Shown here: in pieces, positions 4,812 through 61,538 of the stretch
Layout of the letters: each line of letters begins with the position of its first letter
Position numbering within the stretch: position 1 is the first letter of the stretch
Assembly: GCA_951406725.2 (NCBI GenBank)
Contig: OX597838.1
Location: 15,066,001-15,130,000, forward strand
Source: Octopus vulgaris
Lineage: Eukaryota
Direction: 5' to 3'
Length of the DNA: 64,000 nt
Notes under the pieces: generated by a model
The model's input: only the letters and a program-made list of their open reading frames with translations
Database searches by the model: none
What the model was told of the DNA's origin: nothing
Program-made: the position numbers and the translations under genes

Positions 4812-5433
4812 AAGTCATGTGCTGTTTATCTTGATATGAAATCACCGTATCGAGCACATATGGTTGTGATGCATTTGCCTAGTGTACCCTTATCAGAAGG
4901 GTAGTCATGATGGGTATACTGGGCTTTGTATATTTTACCCCAGTGTCACGTTGATGGCATGCACTGCTCTCTCACTCAGTAATAATAATGATAATAATAA
5001 TAATAATAATTTGCTTGTCAGTTGTTTGACCTTAACCAGTTGAGCATGTTCCTTAGTGGCTGACGATATGTGCATCTCTGATCACGAGCAGAAGTAGTGG
5101 GGGAGCATCATAGCCATGTGTTGAGAGGGATTCTTTGGGGTTTGAATAGTTCACCTCTGGAAACATGGGTGGTTCTTTCAACATCCTTAAACAACCCTTA
5201 TTCAGGGACCGTTTAAGCGGGATGGGCTACTCAACCTGAAGAAAATTCTAACTGGGCCCCACCTGCAAGGTCATGTGCTGTTTATCTTGATATGAGATCA
5301 CCGTATCGAGCACATATGGTTGTGATGCATGTGCCTAGTGTACCCTTATCAGAAGGGTAGTCATGATGGGTATACTGGGCTTTGTATATTTTACCCCAGT
5401 GTCACGTTGATGGCATGCACTGCTCTCTCACTC
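4812..5433 (+). mobile_element. Two tandem 5'-truncated copies of the (AAT)n-associated family
   Basis: Both end at CTCTCACTC followed by (AAT)n. Confidence 0.72.
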
Positions 5434-5446
5434 AATAATAATAATG

Positions 5447-5503
<57 letters not shown>

Positions 5504-7953: not shown

Positions 7954-8340
7954 TGTGGAGGCGCAATGGCCCAGTGGTTAGGGCAGCGGACTCACGGACA
8001 TAGGATCGCGGTTTCGATTCCCAGACGGGACGTTGTGAGTGTTTATTGAGCGAAAACACCTAAAGCTCCACGAGGCTCCGGCAGGGGATGGTGGTGATCC
8101 CTGCTGTACTCTTTCACCACAACTTTCTCTCACTCTTACTTCCTGTTTCTGTTGTACCTGTATTTCAAAGGGCCGGCCTCGTCACTCGCTGTGTCACGCT
8201 GAATATCCCCGAGAACTACGTTAAGGGTACACGTGTCTGTGGAGTGCTCAGCCACTTACACGTTAATTTCACGAGCAGGCTGTTCCGTTGATTCGGATCA
8301 ACCGGAACCCTCGTCGTCGTAACCGACGGAGTGCTTCCAC
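7954..8340 (+). mobile_element. Full-length tRNA-derived SINE (tRNA-Arg-like head)
   Basis: A box TGGCCCAGTGG, B box GGTTTCGATTCC; 12-bp TSD ATTGTCAACATG (7942-7953 and 8341-8352); near-identical copy at 61150-61538. Confidence 0.9.
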
Positions 8341-10221: not shown

Positions 10222-12153
10222 TTAAAAATGTATGGCGTGTGTGGTGAAATTGTGCACGTCGTTGCAGACTTTGCCACAAATGTTGCACTGCCAAGGATTG
10301 TTGACGTTGTGCAATCCCATGTGTAAATGATAAAGTATTCTGTTAAGAAATATCACATCACAGTGTTTGCACATGGCTACCTGTTCGGCTTTGTTCTTCA
10401 GTTCGTGTAAAATATCCGAGTAGCTACTACTAAATGATGACTCGCTGCCGTTAGACGAACTCACAAACTGTTCTTGTTTACCTTGCTGGCTTTCTAACTC
10501 ATTCACCGGAACCGAATTATGGATGGCTGTTTTCGAAGACATTGCTGTGGAACAGTTTGCTTTGTCTGTTCTCTTCTCCTTTGACCAGCTGTCGTAAAAC
10601 AAGAAAGCCCTATCTTTTGAGCTATTTCCCTCGCCAATATTTCGGCCTCTGTATATATTGTCTTGATGGTCAAACAATTTACCATGCTTTTTATGTGCTT
10701 CTTTGTTCTTCGCAAGAACATTTCTGTCGTATAAAGAATCGTAATAGTGGAAATTCTTTAAAAACGTTGGTTTACTTTGGTAATCGGACTTTTCGATAAA
10801 ACCTACTGAATGAGGTCGCGATGTTATAGAATTCTCAGAGGTAAAATCGTTTGGCACACTTTGACTTCTGTTGACACTTTTAGCACCGAAGGAAGATATG
10901 TACCGTAACTGATCTTCCTTCCAACACTTGGGCTTCTCTTGTACTGAATTATTTGAAGAGGTGCCAACTTGCTTCTGTATCATATTTAGTTTTTCACTAC
11001 CCGGGGATTCATTATGAAATACATGAGATTTATAGACTGTGTTATATTTACTAAAGTAATTTTTCAGAGAGCTGCTCTTGGAATGCTTGTCAAACGATAC
11101 AGTATGATATGAGTCCGACAATCGAGGTTCTATATGGAGGGAATTCTTTTTTATTGGTAACGGACATGGGGTCTCTCCAGTGTCGCTTCCATGTTGAAGC
11201 TGACGCTTTCGTTTGCTCTCAAGCATTTGACTATAAATCCTGGAGGGATCGTTAAATATGGCAGTATTGTGTAGCGCCTGAACGCCACGTCTGTGAGATA
11301 TCAAATGTAAAGTTAGAAAATCTTCGTTTTCGAACGCTGCGCCGCATTCGTCGCATCGCAACCGTGCGGCGCTCCTGCGCGTAGACTGGTAGAGGGCATG
11401 TGACGGAAAATCGAAATGTTGAATAGATGATGCATGTGAACAGTCATTTGCCGATTCGTGATAAGCATGTTGTGACCTGCTACTTGATGCACTTTCTGCA
11501 TGATATGACATCATATGCATGGCCAACGAATCTTGGTCTGCAAACTGAGAATCACACATCAAACAGATAACATGATGTGAGCTGATAAGGTTTGTTGAGG
11601 AATTCATCAAAGAAGGTGATTGTTCTTTGACAATGCTGGTGTCGGTACAGCTGACATTTTGGTGGTCAGTGGCAGATCTTCGAGATATTACACCGTTGTT
11701 ACTCATTGAATCCATTAAAGAACAATCTCTGTTGTTTGTTTCCGGTTCGGTTTTCACGACAACTAATTTTGGTGTCAGAGGAACTGGACTTCCTGTAGTA
11801 GAGCCATCATTGGACAAGACTTCTTGTTTGACTTCTTTAATGCAGTTCTCTATTTCCGATATCGACATATCACCTTGGTCGACAAAACCCAATGTTTCTT
11901 TCGTCGTTGTGGAATGAAGAGCAAGTGTGGAAGATTTGATGTCGTTTGTGTTGCCTATGCTGGACTCAATATCTGCTCGACCATTTCCACCATTGCTTCC
12001 GGTGACTGCAACACGGGATTCGGATCGGCACGATTTTTCTTTAGCGCGTATCATCACATGCATAGCGTATGCATCTCTGTTCATAAATACAGTATTGCAG
12101 TCCTCGCAGGTGAACGGCATCACCGTCATGTCCGCTGTATACAACGGGTCCAT
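10222..12153 (-). CDS. C2H2 zinc-finger protein with C-terminal Ikaros/Hunchback/Pegasus-type dimerisation finger pair (643 aa, single coding exon)
   Basis: Long non-repetitive ORF. ATG at 12153 in AAAATGG context with an in-frame TAG just upstream, so the track's GTG start at 12159 is unlikely. Fingers: CEDC..H (degenerate), CLMC-x12-HMMSYH and CDEC-x12-HLISH. C-terminus CKHCDVIFLNRILYHLHMGLH-NVNNPWQ-CNICGKVCNDVHNFTTHAIH matches the Ikaros-family terminal motif. SUMO-consensus VKQE and VKTE; basic KRKR. Confidence 0.93.
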   Translation of the reverse strand: MDPLYTADMTVMPFTCEDCNTVFMNRDAYAMHVMIRAKEKSCRSESRVAVTGSNGGNGRADIESSIGNTNDIKSSTLALHSTTTKETLGFVDQGDMSISEIENCIKEVKQEVLSNDGSTTGSPVPLTPKLVVVKTEPETNNRDCSLMDSMSNNGVISRRSATDHQNVSCTDTSIVKEQSPSLMNSSTNLISSHHVICLMCDSQFADQDSLAMHMMSYHAESASSSRSQHAYHESANDCSHASSIQHFDFPSHALYQSTRRSAARLRCDECGAAFENEDFLTLHLISHRRGVQALHNTAIFNDPSRIYSQMLESKRKRQLQHGSDTGETPCPLPIKKNSLHIEPRLSDSYHTVSFDKHSKSSSLKNYFSKYNTVYKSHVFHNESPGSEKLNMIQKQVGTSSNNSVQEKPKCWKEDQLRYISSFGAKSVNRSQSVPNDFTSENSITSRPHSVGFIEKSDYQSKPTFLKNFHYYDSLYDRNVLAKNKEAHKKHGKLFDHQDNIYRGRNIGEGNSSKDRAFLFYDSWSKEKRTDKANCSTAMSSKTAIHNSVPVNELESQQGKQEQFVSSSNGSESSFSSSYSDILHELKNKAEQVAMCKHCDVIFLNRILYHLHMGLHNVNNPWQCNICGKVCNDVHNFTTHAIHF

Positions 12154-12351
12154 TTTCACCTATAAACAGTTCCGCTGCTGCAAATGTTTACTTTGACCAC
12201 AGCGGCGAGGATGCGTTAAGATTCACGTTTATTAAAAATGTAACACTTTGCAATAATTGCATTCACTGATCTTCTACGATAGAAAAATATCTGATCAAAC
12301 AGAGAACACAGATAAAATTATAGATTAGTTGCATGTAGATATTACACTCAC

Positions 12352-18668: not shown

Positions 18669-18880
18669 AAGGCGGTGTGATGGCCGAATTGCTAGTATAC
18701 CGGGCTAAATGCTTAGCAGCATTTCGTCCGTCCCCGTGTTCGGAGCTCAAATTCTGTAGGGGTCGACTTTGCCTGTCATCTTTTTGGGGTCAATAAATTA
18801 AGTACCAGTGAAACATTGGGGTCGATGTAATTCATTCATCCCCACCTCCCCCAAGCTTCCCTTGTGACAAACATTTTGAA
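18669..18880 (+). mobile_element. Old diverged Meta-like SINE (similar relics at about 1-125, 7479-7630, 8455-8586, 20805-21020, 47835-48105, 55700-55850)
   Basis: Degenerate head, B box and CCTTTCATCCTTTCGGGGTCGA-like core. Confidence 0.7.
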
Positions 18881-18900
18881 TAATAATAATAATAATAATA

Positions 18901-18932
<32 letters not shown>

Positions 18933-18964
18933 CATTATTATTATTGTTGTTGTTGTTGTTGTTG

Positions 18965-19005
<41 letters not shown>

Positions 19006-19014
19006 TATTCAATC

Positions 19015-19179
19015 AATTGAACTCGGAATCTTGGGGTTAGTAGCCCGCCCTCTTAACCATTACGCTATATGCCTGTTGGTATATAGTGTAATGGTTAAGA
19101 GCGTGAGCCACTAACCCCAAAATTGCGAGTTCAATTCTAGGCAGTACCTTGATTAAATAACAACAACAACAACAACAAC

Positions 19180-19243
<64 letters not shown>

Positions 19244-19431
19244 TCAGCAAAAAATACTTTAGGAATGAGAACCCAGGGATGGGTTCAAAATTCTACCAGG
19301 ACACCTGATGAAGGCTGGAGAGTAAATCAGCCGAAATGTTGCGGTAACAACAAACAAGATGAGGACACATATCTGTCCAATGTAAATAATGTAAATAATG
19401 TACAAATTTCTTCATCTCAAAAATATTGAAC
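19015..19431 (+). mobile_element. tRNA-headed hammerhead element, copy 1, with inverted duplication of the head
   Basis: Inverted arms 19015-19073 and 19078-19136 around tgtt, extended by mirror (ATT/GTT)n and (AAC/AAT)n tracts. The 3' part aligns with 20530-20682. Confidence 0.72.
19300..19345 (+). ncRNA. Degenerate minimal type I hammerhead ribozyme motif
   Basis: GACAC-CUGAUGA-A-GGCUG..CAGCC-GAAAU-GUU-GCGGU. The core is kept; stem III and the 3' strand of stem I are mutated. Confidence 0.55.
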
Positions 19432-20385: not shown

Positions 20386-20444
20386 TAGTGGTTAAGAGCG
20401 CAGGCTACTAACCCCAAGATTCCGAGTTCGATTCCAGGCAGTGA

Positions 20445-20507
<63 letters not shown>

Positions 20508-20682
20508 TAATAATAATAATAACAACAACAACATCGAAAAATACCTTAGGAATGAGAGCCCAGCTTCGAAATTTCCTCCAAGACACCTGATGAAGGCTGG
20601 AGGGTATATCAGCCGAAACAGTCGTGTTAACAACAAACAAGATGAGGACAAATATCCGTCAAATGTAAATAAAGTAAATAAT
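20386..20682 (+). mobile_element. tRNA-headed, hammerhead-containing short element (Penelope-associated or retrozyme-like SINE), copy 2
   Basis: Head TAGTGGTTAAGAGCGCAGGCTACTAACCCC..GAGTTCGATTCC (part of the A box plus B box), then (AAT)n, then the hammerhead at 20582-20628, then a (TGTAAATAA)n-like tail. Colinear with the copy at 19078-19431. Confidence 0.75.
20582..20628 (+). ncRNA. Minimal type I hammerhead ribozyme motif
   Basis: GACAC-CUGAUGA-A-GGCUGG(loop)UCAGCC-GAAAC-A-GUC^GUGUU. Stem I GACAC/GUGUU, intact catalytic core, 6-bp stem II, vestigial stem III, GUC cleavage triplet. Confidence 0.75.
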
Positions 20683-21567
20683 ATCGATCAAATAAGTACT
20701 AATTGATCACCGAGGGCGATGTAATCGACCACTCCCCCCCAATATTGCTTGCTGCCAAAACTTGAAACCAATATTAAATCTGCTCCATTATTTAAGTTCT
20801 TTGAGACGGCGAGGCGGCAGAATCGGTACTGCGTCGGACAAAGAATTAGCGGCATTTCTTTCGACTTTACATTCTGAGTTTAAATGTTGCCATAGTCGAC
20901 CTTGCCTTTTATCCTTTCGGGGTCGATAAAATAAGTACCAGTTATAAGTACCGGGACGATGTAATCGATTTAACCCCTCCCCCAAAATTGCTGGCCCTGT
21001 GCCAAAATTTGAAGCTATTATTCGTGTTCTTTTTACCGCTTTGTCACGAGAAATGGCCGAGATTTTGGGGTGATAGAGGAACCAGAGTTCTGATCCGAAT
21101 GTTTTATAATACAGTAAGCTCCGCCAAAATCACCCAGAGACACGGCGGTGTCGTTAAGGAGACGGTTTGAGTCTACCAGTCACTTAGGCCACCGCATGAT
21201 TTGAACTCAAAACGTAAGGAGCCGGTACAAATACCTAAAATCATCATTATCTAACGCCCTAACGATTCTACAAGCCTAGCGCCCAAGGCTTGATGAACCT
21301 TTCTTACTTAGCAGAGAGACCTTAAATTATTCTAAAGGGAAGAATTGAGGGGCTAGGATAGTCATGCCGGTCCACAATGTCTTTTAACGTCATTGATCAA
21401 TTCTGGTGTAATTAATCAATTAATTGCTAAGTTAATCAAATAAATATGCTTTAATTATAAAACTAGCAGCTAAGGTTTTGTTATAAACACTAACCAACGT
21501 GGGAGAACTCAACACAATGACACGACGTGCTAAAAGTAGCAGCATAGAATTCTCCAAACCACACCAT

Positions 21568-22309: not shown

Positions 22310-22915
22310 TTAGCACAAGGCCAGCAAGTTCGGCGTGGCGAGAGTAAGCCGATTACATCGACCCCAGTGCCCAACTGGTGCTCTTTCTACCGACGCCGAA
22401 AGGATGAAAGGCAAAGTTGGCCTCGGCAGAATTTGAACTCAGAACGTAAAGACGTACGAAATGCCGCTAAGCATTTTGCCCGGCGTGCTAACGACTCTTA
22501 TTTCTTTACTACCCACAAGGGGCTAAACATAGAGGGGACAAACAAGCACAGACAAACGGATTAAGTCGATTACATCGACTCCAGTGTGTAACAGGTACTT
22601 AATATATCGACCCAGAAAGAATGAAAGGCAAAGTTGGCCTCGGCGGAATTTGAACTCACAACGTAAAGACGTACGAAATACCTATTTCTTTACTACCCAC
22701 AAGGGGCTAAACACAGAGGGGACAAACAAGGACAGACAAACGGATTAAGTCGATTATATCGACCCCAGTGCGTAACTGGTACTTATTTAATCGACCCCGA
22801 AAGGATGAAAGGCAAAGTCGACCTCGGCGGAATTTGAACTCAGAACGTAACGGCAGACGAAATACCGCAAAGCATTTCACCCGGCGTTCTAACGTTTCTG
22901 CCAGCTCGCCGCCTT
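22310..22915 (-). mobile_element. Meta-like SINE tandem trimer
   Basis: Three units of the same family; the leftmost is the older variant. Confidence 0.85.
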
Positions 22916-23134
22916 ATCTGATTGTATTTATCACCACACTCACGGCTTGACAACAGGTGTTTATTTACGTCCGTGCAAGTTAACAATTAGGCAAGAAAAA
23001 AACAAACAAACGATATAATTAGTACCAGATTCAAAATTTAAGTACTGGAACCGATTTATTTGACTAAATTCTTTAAGACAGTGCCCCAACATAGCCGCAC
23101 TCCATGTGGTTGGTAAGCAGCCACTCCTATAATA

Positions 23135-39263: not shown

Positions 39264-39839
39264 TGTGTGTAGCAGTACATTTTAAAAAAGAAACATGCAG
39301 TTTTTGCGTTACCGTTGTAAAAGCATGAGTGGCTTAACGCTTTACTATTCGTTCAGTTATAATTTTTCTAATGAACCTATGTTGCCGACAAAACGAAACG
39401 AGCTCTGACATACTTTTAAAGATGTTACCCATAACATGCTATTCTGCCCTTATGGAACAGTATAGCATGCTTCTTTCAAAAAGGCAAAGCTTTTACGTAG
39501 GTTACAGATTTTCAGAAATTCAAAAATAGGATTTCACATAGATATATGAAAATTTGGGTTTATGGATAACTCTGGTTGATATAGATCTGCTCGATCCCGA
39601 ATTACCCGGGATCAAACGACAACAACGACGACCACCACTACAACGACATGAATCTAATACGAAGAAAAACTGCTGATTGGCCGAATTTGTAGCGTCTCAA
39701 ACAAAAGGGGTTTCCATTGGGGTTTTTTTCCGGTGCGATACGTTCGGAGTTGAATCCCCGTCAAGGTCGACTTTGCCCTTCATCCTTTTACTGCCGATAA
39801 AATGAAATGGCGGTGACGTACTGGGGTCGATGTAATCTG

Positions 39840-40251
39840 TTTCTTTGCTGCCCACAAGGGGCTAAACACAGAGGGGACAAACAAGGACAGACAAACGGAT
39901 TAAGTCGATTATATCGACCCCAGTGTGTAACTGGTACTTAATTTATCGACCCCGAAAGGATGAAAGGCAAAGTCGACCTCGGCTGAATTTGAACTCAGAA
40001 CGCAACGACAGACGCAATACCTATTTCTTTATTACCCACAAGGGGCTAAACACAGAGGGGACAAACAAGGACAGACATAGGTATTAAGTCGATTACATCG
40101 ACCCCAGTGCGCAACTGGTACTTAATTTATCGACCCCGAAAGGATGAAAGGCAAAGTCGACCTCGGCGGAATTTGAACTCAGAACGCAACGACAGACTCA
40201 ATACCGCTAAGCATTTCGCCCGGTGTGCTAACGTTTCTGCCAGCTCGCCGC
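39840..40251 (-). mobile_element. Meta-like SINE dimer inserted antisense into an older copy of the same family
   Basis: 17-bp TSD CTGGGGTCGATGTAATC (39821-39837 and 40252-40268), which is itself SINE sequence. Confidence 0.87.
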
Positions 40252-40388
40252 CTGGGGTCGATGTAATCGTCTTGCCTCTTCCCAGCCTAAGTTAGCCAAT
40301 TATTATCAAAGAGTGACGGGTAGGCAGAATCGTTAATGCGTCGAAGAAAATGCAACCTCTTCACATACTGAGCTTACTATTATTATTT

Positions 40389-41210
40389 AAGGCGGCGAGC
40401 TGGCAGAATCGTTAGCACGCCGGGCGAAATGCTAAGTGGTATTTCGTCTGCCGCTACGTTCTGAGTTCAAATTCCGCCGAGGTCGACTTTGCCTTTCATC
40501 CTTTCAGGGTCGATAAATTAAGTACCAGTTACGCACTGGGGTCGATGTAATCGACTTAATACCTATGTCTGTCCTTGTTTGTCCCCTCTGTGTTTAGCCC
40601 CTTGTGGGTAATAAAGAAATAGGTATTTCGTCTGCCGCTACGTTCTGAGTTCAAATTCCGCCAAGGTCGACTTTGCCTTTCATCCTTTCGGGGTCGATTA
40701 AATAAGTACCATTTACTCACTGGGGTCGATATAATCGACTTAATCTGTTTGTCTGTCCTTGTTTGTCCTCTCTGTGTTTAACCCCTTGTTGGTAGTAAAG
40801 AAATAGGTATTTCGTCCGTCGCTACGTTCTGAGTTCAAATTCCGCCGAGGTCGACTTTGCCTTTCATCCTTTCGGAGTTGATATAAATTAAATACCAGTT
40901 TGGTACTGGGGTCGATGTAATCGACTTGACCCTTCCCCCAAAATTTCCGGCCTTGTGCCTATAGTAGAAAGGATTATTATTATTATTATTATTATTATTA
41001 AGGCAGCAAACTGACAGAACCGTTAGCACGCTGGGCAAAATGCTCAATGTCCTTTTGTCCGTCTTTACGTTCTGAGTTCGAATTCCACCGAGGTCGACTT
41101 TGCCTTTCATTGTTTCGGCGTCGATAAATTAAGTACCAGTTACGCACTGGGGTCGATGTATATCGACTTAATCTCCGCCCGCAAGCTGCTCTTGTGGCAA
41201 AAATCTGAAA
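40389..41210 (+). mobile_element. Meta-like SINE trimer followed by an older monomer
   Basis: Head at 40389, units rejoining at AAAGAAATAG|GTATTTCGTC, (ATT)n spacer, second head at about 41000. Confidence 0.85.
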
Positions 41211-46918: not shown

Positions 46919-47032
46919 TTTACATTATTTACATGCCCGTGGGCATATGGCGTAGTGGTTAAGAGCGCAGGCTACTAAACCCAAGATTTCGAGTTCGATT
47001 CTAGGCTGTGACCTGAATAATAGTAATAATAA
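46919..47032 (+). mobile_element. 5' (tRNA head) part of the same hammerhead element family
   Basis: ATGCCCGTGGGCAT mini-palindrome, TGGCGTAGTGG A box, GAGTTCGATTC B box, GTGACCTGAATAAT. It is preceded by tttacattatttacat, the reverse complement of the family tail. Confidence 0.7.
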
Positions 47033-47130: not shown

Positions 47131-47182
<52 letters not shown>

Positions 47183-47183
<1 letters not shown>

Positions 47184-47520
47184 GAGTGAGAGAGCAGTTC
47201 ATGCCATCAAAGTGACACTGGGGTAAAATATACGAAGCCCAATATACCCATCATGACTACCCGTCTGATAAGGGTACACCAGGCACATGCATCACAACCA
47301 TATGTGCGCGACATGGTGATCTCATATCAAGATAAACAGCACATGACCTTGCAGGTGGGGCCCAGTTAGAATTTTCTTCAGGTTGAGTAGCCCATCCCGC
47401 TCAAAAGGTCCCTGAATAAGGGTTGTTCAAGGATGTTGAAAGAACCACCCATGTTTCCAGAAGTGAATTATTCAAACCCCAAAGAATCCCTCTCAACACA
47501 TGGCTATGATGCTCCCCCAT
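47183..47520 (-). mobile_element. 5'-truncated copy of the (AAT)n-associated family
   Basis: Reverse complement of about 5100-5433, embedded in (ATT)n on both sides. Confidence 0.75.
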
Positions 47521-48524: not shown

Positions 48525-49110
48525 AGGCGGCGAGCTGGCAGAGTCGTTAGCACGCCGGGCAAAATGCTTAGCGGTGTTTCGTCTGCCGCTACGTTCTGAG
48601 TTCAAATTCCGCCGGGGTCGACTTTGCCTTTCATCCTTTCGGGTTCGATTAAATAAGTACTAGTTACGCACTGGGGTCGATATAATCGACTTAATCCGTT
48701 TGCCTGTCCTTGTTCGTCCCCCCTGTGTTTAGCCCCTTGTTGGCAGTAAAGAAATAGGTATTTCGTCTGTCTTCATGTTCTGAGTTCAAATGCCGCCGGG
48801 GTCGACTTTGCCTTTCATCCTTTCGGGTTCGATTAAATAAGTACTAGTTACGCACTGGGGTCGATATAATCGACTTAATCCGTTTGCCTGTCCTTGTTCG
48901 TCCCCCCTGTGTTTAGCCCCTTGTTGGCAGTAAAGAAATAGGTATTTCGTCTGTCTTCGTGTTCTGAGTTCAAATGCTGCCGGGGTCGACTTTGCCTTTC
49001 ATCCTTTCGGAGACGATATATTAAGTACCAGTTACGCACTGGAGTCAATGTAATCGACTGGTCCCCTCACCAAAATTTCAGGTCTTGTGCCTATAATAGA
49101 AAGGATTATT
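48525..49110 (+). mobile_element. Meta-like SINE tandem trimer
   Basis: One head and three units. Units 1 and 2 share private variants (GGGTTCGATT, GCCTGTCC); the last has the older tail. Confidence 0.85.
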
Positions 49111-61149: not shown

Positions 61150-61538
61150 GGATGGAAGCACTCCGTCGGTTACGACGACGAAGGTTCCGGTTGATCCGAA
61201 TCAACGGAACAGCCTGCTCGTGAAATTAACGTGTAAGTGGCTGAGCACTCCACAGACACGTGTACCCTTAACGTAGTTCTCGGGGATATTCAGCGTGACA
61301 CGGAGAGTGACAAGGCCGGCCCTTTGAAATACAGGTACAACAGAAACAGGAAGTAAGAGTGAGAGAAAGTTGTGGTGAAAGAGTACTGCAGGGATCACCA
61401 CCATCCCCTGCCGGAGCCTCGTGGAGCTTTAGGTGTTTTCGCTCAATAAACACTCACAACGCCCGGTCTGGGAATCGAAACCGCGATCCTATGACCGCGA
61501 ATCCGCTGCCCTAACCACTGGGCCATTGCGCCTCCACT
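61150..61538 (-). mobile_element. Full-length tRNA-derived SINE, same family as 7954-8340
   Basis: Reverse complement of the 7954 copy; 13-bp TSD ATTAAAAGAGAGT (61137-61149 and 61539-61551). Confidence 0.9.

Follow-up and report, generated by a model that had tools for sequence, protein, structure and literature searches.

The hammerhead-bearing module under study lies in a window of Octopus vulgaris DNA (the whole 64,000-nt stretch that was analyzed) and was found to match the pLTR and ORF start of an autonomous element of the same genome, which is almost certainly a member of the Penelope-like elements (PLEs). In the reading that we favor, at a probability of roughly 0.6, this element is of Penelope/Poseidon type, its tRNA-Arg-like head would act as an internal Pol III promoter for short transcripts, on which the RT-endonuclease of the element itself would act, and most copies would spread as a built-in SINE. 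On balance, we regard the element as working like a SINE for most of its copies, yet not as a member of the SINE class.

Anatomy of the module in the window

The tRNA-like head, AAT tract and hammerhead core described for this module in an earlier note were all confirmed where that note had placed them (Table 1). The head is tRNA-derived, as had been proposed, but of the A and B boxes then ascribed to it the A box is reduced to a remnant, because the window copy begins at family-head position 13. A second B-box-like motif is likewise present, but it is imperfect and sits in the first codons of the ORF, and the (TGTAAATAA)n stretch that had been taken for a SINE-like tail is instead an in-frame 9-nt repeat within the ORF. 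The ORF frame of the window copy is interrupted by small insertions, and the copy has no tail; by analogy to PMC11167929, its last portion (20641-20682) is likely the zone at which RT starts.

The predicted hammerhead is composed of GACAC (20582-86), CUGAUGA (20587-93), an extra A (20594), a 6-bp stem II that includes one G-U pair (20595-20600 with 20609-20614) and GAAA (20615-18), followed by a stem III that is a palindromic stub disturbed by an extra A at 20620. The 3' strand of the 5-bp stem I (20624-28) follows C20623, after which the cut is predicted.

The module does recur at 19 kb, where the copy previously given as 19078-19431 begins one base earlier and is 84% identical to the window module over its body. 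Its hammerhead core lies at 19305 with a broken stem I, and its inverted arm had been overlooked. A head was also found near 46919, but it begins at 46941, and the bases from 46919 are an inverted 3' stub.

Table 1. Features of the module, its further copies and other repeats in the window.
Feature	Position	Strand	Basis
tRNA-Arg-like head, family-head positions 13-76	20386..20449	+	alignment to family head
A-box remnant of window head	20386-20391	+	
B box of window head	20424-20435	+	
(AAT)n/(AAC)n spacer, length differs between copies	20450..20533	+	
First codons of Penelope ORF, ATG at 20552	20552..20682	+	frame open in natural copy L174
Predicted minimal type I hammerhead motif, predicted cut after 20623	20582..20628	+	motif and architecture as in PMC4209133
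5' arm of predicted stem-loop and 9-nt repeats	20641..20682	+	end zone of tail-less copies
Inverted 5'-joined arm of second copy: head and inverted AAT tract	18904..19074	-	
Second, more diverged pLTR copy: full head and tail	19077..19431	+	
Inverted 3' stub (46919-46934), palindrome center and full head (46941-47016)	46919..47016	+	
Dispersed repeats	5098-5486 / 47131-47519; 22499-22916; 39837-40806; 48525-48941; 7955-8339 / 61153-61537		

Other features of the window include further dispersed repeat families (385-418 nt, 89-97% alike) and a 645-codon open frame with C2H2 zinc-finger-like motifs on the minus strand (10225-12159), which is probably a host gene exon. Another abundant tRNA-like repeat is found on both sides of the module (18673-18880 and 20800-21020), and we take these copies to resemble CORE-type SINEs.

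Family size and sequence

A genome-wide search of the kind proposed in the earlier note returned 2,166 exact matches to the 33-nt ribozyme core compared to none for the reversed control; thus, the core motif is not due to chance. An 18-mer just upstream of the core had 9,606 exact matches genome-wide, which places the family at about 10^4 copies. These are mostly 5'-truncated and diverge from the family majority by ~4-5% at non-CpG sites. Among 103 copies that were not picked by the core, the site after GAAAC was GUU (U in 78%, gap in 20%), such that the GUC cut site noted earlier is real for the window copy but, like the A inside its ACGU palindrome, is a minority or private change. The element was also detected, with the same sharp tail end, in four other sequencing runs (organisms B to E).

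Solo and ORF-linked copies were found to share the same majority sequence and the same polymorphisms, and no diagnostic solo subfamily was detected in this comparison. The AAT tract alone differed, with a median of 35 nt in solo and 25 nt in ORF-linked copies (p = 0.005). An apparently younger age of solo copies (p = 0.001) was discarded, as it stemmed from a biased choice of loci and was not significant after matching (p = 0.07-0.11); a difference in the number of 9-nt repeats similarly vanished after matching.

The module is the pLTR and ORF start of a Penelope-like element

Endonuclease-coding sequence was located directly upstream of the head in 5 of the first 30 core matches, on contig 1. 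When 30 loci were chosen by endonuclease-coding ORF sequence only, without use of head or core, the head or part of it followed the end of the ORF in all 29 readable rows; with so uniform a junction, independent SINE insertions at these sites are very unlikely. The unit is ordered as ORF end, head, (AAT)n, ATG, hammerhead motif, 9-nt repeats, tail and rest of the ORF; the autonomous unit has a length of 2.7 kb, and the ATG is ~100 nt after the first base of the head. Two near-full-length copies, L174 (partial pLTR, ORF, pLTR) and L175 (ORF end, pLTR, ORF, pLTR), carry pLTRs as partial tandems with the hammerhead, and neither was intact when translated. In L174, an ATG ~35 nt ahead of the ribozyme opens a frame that continues across the ribozyme, the 9-nt repeats and the tail and reaches the conserved N-terminal domain. 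The column majority of 43 natural segments gave 835 open codons from the ATG of the pLTR.

The encoded protein matched RVT_1 (E 1.4e-10), with YVDD and a conserved N-terminal motif in one majority frame. The Pfam GIY-YIG model gave no match to the ORF; the C-terminus aligned to the GIY-YIG domain of a Neptune-type element (E 2e-04) and has a visible Y..YxG..R pattern, from which the C-terminal endonuclease is likely of GIY-YIG type. By eye, no zinc-finger-like, Cys-rich linker is present between RT and endonuclease. The presence or absence of this linker separates Neptune/Nematis from Penelope/Poseidon (PMC8557442), and its absence therefore points to the Penelope/Poseidon clade. The closest protein relatives are 51-69% identical (P0001-P0008, P0037-P0044), and full-length relatives keep the ribozyme-encoded residues TPDxG...KR at the N-terminus. 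Of two metagenome scans, one was without matches and the other gave relatives at 25-42% identity only; a PDB sequence search returned no meaningful match. The earlier suggestion that the module is mobilized by a Penelope RT rather than by a LINE is supported, and the comparison to pLTRs of autonomous Penelope elements in the same genome, then advised, identified one that the module matches.

One cluster of the 51-69% identical relatives includes barnacle proteins, which raises the question of horizontal transfer. A young Neptune-type PLE (781 aa, found with PF01541; L091, G000:C16:20834000-20841500) was rejected as the partner, since its 456-nt pLTR, which begins at a TATA box, shares no sequence with the module. 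Many of its copies keep an open RT and GIY-YIG frame of 781 codons. The element also has a 359-codon frame upstream and a hammerhead-like motif (core U3-A8), which was not cleanly parsed.

The hammerhead motif is shared by related families

Judged by its sequence, the motif of the module is a minimal hammerhead as described in PMC4209133. Six related families, taken from the scan that yielded relatives of 25-42% identity (L283 and L091, not cleanly parsed, were left out), carry this core in the corresponding position behind the endonuclease, each with an ACGU palindrome and with U or C at the cut site. Stems I and II were found to pair in 7 of 7 families despite changed sequence, compared to 2 of 42 (stem I) and 16 of 42 (stem II) combinations when strands were swapped between families. 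The covariation anticipated for stems I and II was thus recovered, and orthologous motifs with compensatory stem changes in six families agree with the Penelope-type minimal hammerhead that had been recognized in the window. When the window, the module and a typical copy were scanned with Rfam, a check with hammerhead models having been recommended earlier, neither a hammerhead nor a tRNA was detected. Conservation of the core above its flanks was likewise not seen among family copies, an outcome that is uninformative, as dead copies are expected to decay evenly.

The minimal hammerhead of the schistosome example displays no cleavage as a monomer and low cleavage as a dimer (PMC4209133), and the hammerhead of PAc needs protein and is dispensable for insertion in vitro (PMC11167929). 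The octopus motif would similarly be predicted to cleave weakly, as a dimer or with the help of protein. The three bases 5' of the predicted cut (20621-20623 in the window) are deleted in 24 of 199 copies, plus 5 CpG-decayed ones, compared to 0-5 deletions at other sites with equal or longer microhomology. Copies with the 3-nt deletion have no clear common diagnostic change, and the deletion was on one arm only in 8 of 10 pairs. This deletion may be the scar left when RT crosses a template that has been cut, or may result from slippage, and is only a hint of self-cleavage.

Most insertions are inverted pairs

Copies were anchored from the first 100 core matches listed, all on contig 1. The 5'-end classifier used for these copies misfiles a few that are ORF-linked (e.g., L088). 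An inverted arm was found on the 5' side, head-to-head, in 63 of the 100. In 56 rows scored for the tail, which represent 53 distinct pairs, 49 pairs have the ~30-nt tail on a single arm, 4 have no tail, and none has a tail on both arms. The outer junctions share a direct repeat of at least 8 nt in 34 of 51 distinct pairs, compared to 4.5% of shuffled pairings; therefore, one insertion comprises both arms. The target duplications are 8-15 nt long, and the two-arm insertions would fit a staggered cut through both strands, with priming from each end. The short unit was seen by eye as head-to-tail repeats at only ~4 of the 100 anchored loci, and with copies mostly inverted head-to-head the notion of a retrozyme hybrid is not supported. 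Extensive truncation at the 5' end and inversion are usual among PLEs (PMC8557442).

The tRNA-Arg-like head and its 5' edge

The family head aligned to a genomic tRNA-Arg(ACG) gene, the one isoacceptor used for comparison, with a score of 69, compared to 25.8 +/- 4.5 (maximum 44) for 2,000 shuffles. The head keeps the A and B boxes and does not keep the acceptor and T stems; ARAGORN reported no tRNA at the default score and only noise at a lowered score. Most of the 119-194 nt between the stop codon and the ribozyme is filled by the head; of 9 copies, none has TATA in this interval and 1 has CCAAT. No B box was found in the 400 nt before the ribozyme of the six relatives, and these have CCAAT in 5 of 6 and TATA in 2 of 6 (plus L283).

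Exact counts of five 18-mers genome-wide were 9,606 at +97, 5,660 at +30, 1,200 at -35, 951 at -143 and 618 at -391. If the five are assumed to be equally mutable, copy number falls 4.7-fold across the 5' edge of the head, with a loss per nucleotide ~10 times that within the ORF. Where the head is intact at +1 to +4, 62 of 74 heads (a count that includes both arms of some pairs) stop there and 12 continue into the ORF; of the 62, 27 go on as an inverted head. An imperfect hairpin lies exactly across this edge, at -7 kcal/mol as DNA in two of three copies and -3 in the third.

The 16 nt before the head in ORF-linked copies (e.g., L118) resemble the reverse complement of the first 17 nt of the head, perhaps a trace of an inversion event through which the element acquired its head. 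In addition, a cluster of more than 20 tRNA-Arg(ACG) matches, several ~206 nt apart, is present at 211.88-211.97 Mb (G000:C2).

In the reading that we favor, Pol III would transcribe from the internal promoter in the head, and the resulting RNAs, with starts at about -7 to +1 of the head, would serve as templates for the RT-endonuclease that the element itself encodes. The endonuclease would cut both target strands, and RT would be primed from both ends at two start sites on the RNA, at the tail end and ~30 nt before it, as shown in vitro for PAc. At the 5' end of the RNA the RT would run off, and the cDNA would fold back on the palindrome at the edge of the head or be joined to the other arm.

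The main rival to a Pol III start is a hairpin-induced stop of the RT at the same edge. By this view, the copies would be ordinary pLTR fragments, with the head as a captured passenger, the RNA a Pol II read-through product, and the 5' ends due to RT arrest or cDNA fold-back at the hairpin. The hairpin of ORF-linked copies could alone explain the step in 5' ends, and the continuation of 27 of the 62 copies as inverted heads, the lack of a solo subfamily and the truncation and inversion normal for PLEs (PMC8557442) are in keeping with it. Penelope of D. virilis also has a TATA-less internal promoter like that of LINEs (PMC2377424). However, stopping of ~84% of copies at a modest hairpin would handicap an autonomous element, and a mere passenger does not readily account for A and B boxes kept while the acceptor and T stems were not, for the lack of another promoter motif between stop codon and ribozyme, or for the lack of a shared T4 in the unit. 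We consider this explanation unlikely, although it survives best of the alternatives.

Terminators and transcription

No T4 site common to more than 2 of ~30 copies was found anywhere along the unit. Synonymous shuffles of the ORF gave a mean of 2.9 T4 and P(0)=0.02; the young Neptune-type element of this genome contains 9 T4 runs within 2,346 nt, and 17 related families average 2.4 T4 per kb. These values, together with the closeness of the ATG to the start of the head, favor the possibility that Pol III transcription from the head of the upstream pLTR extends over all 2.7 kb of the autonomous element and its ORF. This would extend rather than exclude the explanation that we favor. Yet T4 is also absent from the ORF in 3 of 11 long relatives, one with a TATA box before the ribozyme, which makes its absence weak evidence, and these proteins are low in Phe throughout the family (2.0-2.6% in seven relatives). 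In addition, uncapped Pol III RNA is poorly translated. We therefore hold transcription of the whole element by Pol III to be doubtful. For Pol III-driven LTR elements, autonomous partners must use Pol II according to Kojima (PMC10886601), which also argues against it.

Three unstranded 2026 RNA-seq runs had equal signal on both strands, with a depth that follows DNA copy number. The reads were mostly less than 95% alike to the element, and 74-79% ran on into unlike flank. There was no pile-up of starts or ends, including at the predicted cut site, in these libraries, a type unable to show short Pol III RNAs. The signal fits read-through from host transcripts.

The weakest alternative, a separate non-autonomous SINE/retrozyme family that borrowed a Penelope 3' end, was essentially the non-coding family of the earlier note and recalls Schistosoma Sm-alpha in its head and ribozyme (PMC6765202), and ~80% of head-bearing copies are without ORF sequence, but as a distinct family it is largely refuted and highly improbable, for the head is integral to the autonomous element, both classes of copy share one majority sequence without diagnostic differences, and head-to-tail arrays are few.

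Relation to known elements

The element is most readily compared to PAc (Poseidon_Ac) of Anolis carolinensis, which similarly has RT followed by a GIY-YIG-type endonuclease, a hammerhead that overlaps the ORF start with its cut site downstream of the ATG, an optional 30-40-nt tail between two RT start sites, and inverted 5'-truncated arms (PMC11167929). The octopus element differs in that its pLTR begins with a tRNA-Arg-like head; none is described for PAc in the available parts of that report, and the six related families are also without one. The minimal hammerheads known from metazoan PLEs (Cervera and de la Pena 2014, PMC4209133) resemble the window motif in having a short stem I and a long stem II, an unpaired base that lies between 9 and 10.1, a G10.1-C11.1 pair and a palindromic 15.2-16.2, and resemble the octopus family in forming pairs on opposite strands 100-700 bp apart, whereas the GUU cut site sets the octopus family apart.

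TRIMp3 elements (Cassandra, Helenus and Ajax) also have a small-RNA-derived Pol III promoter in the terminal repeat and a tRNA-like part that does not fold as a tRNA (Kojima 2024, PMC10886601). By contrast to the octopus element, they are non-autonomous LTR elements with PBS and PPT; the octopus repeat belongs to a protein-coding PLE, a case deemed unlikely for LTR partners (PMC10886601). Sm-alpha of Schistosoma is similar to the module in having a Pol III-type promoter beside a type I hammerhead in a short unit (PMC6765202). Sm-alpha/Sj-alpha and the animal non-LTR retrozymes are, however, tandem and non-coding with canonical hammerheads (PMC6765202, PMC7229834), whereas the module occurs mostly as inverted pairs and is part of an ORF-bearing element.

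Like tRNA-derived SINEs (SINE2), the module has a tRNA head, a microsatellite and a 3' part recognized by RT in trans. It differs from SINE2 in that its partner is a PLE and not a LINE, it has no A-rich or tandem-repeat 3' tail, its insertions are inverted and two-armed, and its head is also found in the autonomous partner. The octopus repeats OK, OR1 and OR2 are among the SINE2 elements.

Full-text searches of the literature (including PMC6962438 and PMC8967140, as far as their text was available) returned no tRNA-headed pLTR or PLE-dependent SINE; the element may be named in Repbase, Dfam or octopus repeat libraries. The accessible parts of PMC5786205 and PMC10886601 make no mention of Penelope. 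PMC13282606 lists 190 Penelope-like families and many unclassified SINEs, with no mention of a hammerhead in its text and one supplement. In octopus genomes, some repeats that are listed as unclassified SINEs may be pLTRs of Penelope elements.

The SINEs described to date rely on LINEs, and terminal repeats with a Pol III promoter are known from non-autonomous LTR elements. A tRNA head in a Penelope pLTR joins three topics that are normally handled separately: the heads of SINEs, the hammerheads of PLEs and ribozyme repeats that, like Sm-alpha, are driven by Pol III. The 270-nt unit is a compact substrate for recognition by a PLE RT in trans, the deletion hotspot at the cut site offers a genome-level approach to whether the ribozyme cuts in vivo, and the element allows one to ask whether Pol III can drive a protein-coding retroelement. 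We raise only tentatively, as a proposition that is probably too strong, that an autonomous, protein-coding Penelope-like element has replaced its Pol II promoter with one that derives from a tRNA and is used by Pol III, is without a Pol III terminator over 2.7 kb, and sheds its pLTR as a hammerhead SINE, such that master and SINE are one. If true, this would provide a direct route for the origin of Sm-alpha-like ribozyme repeats.
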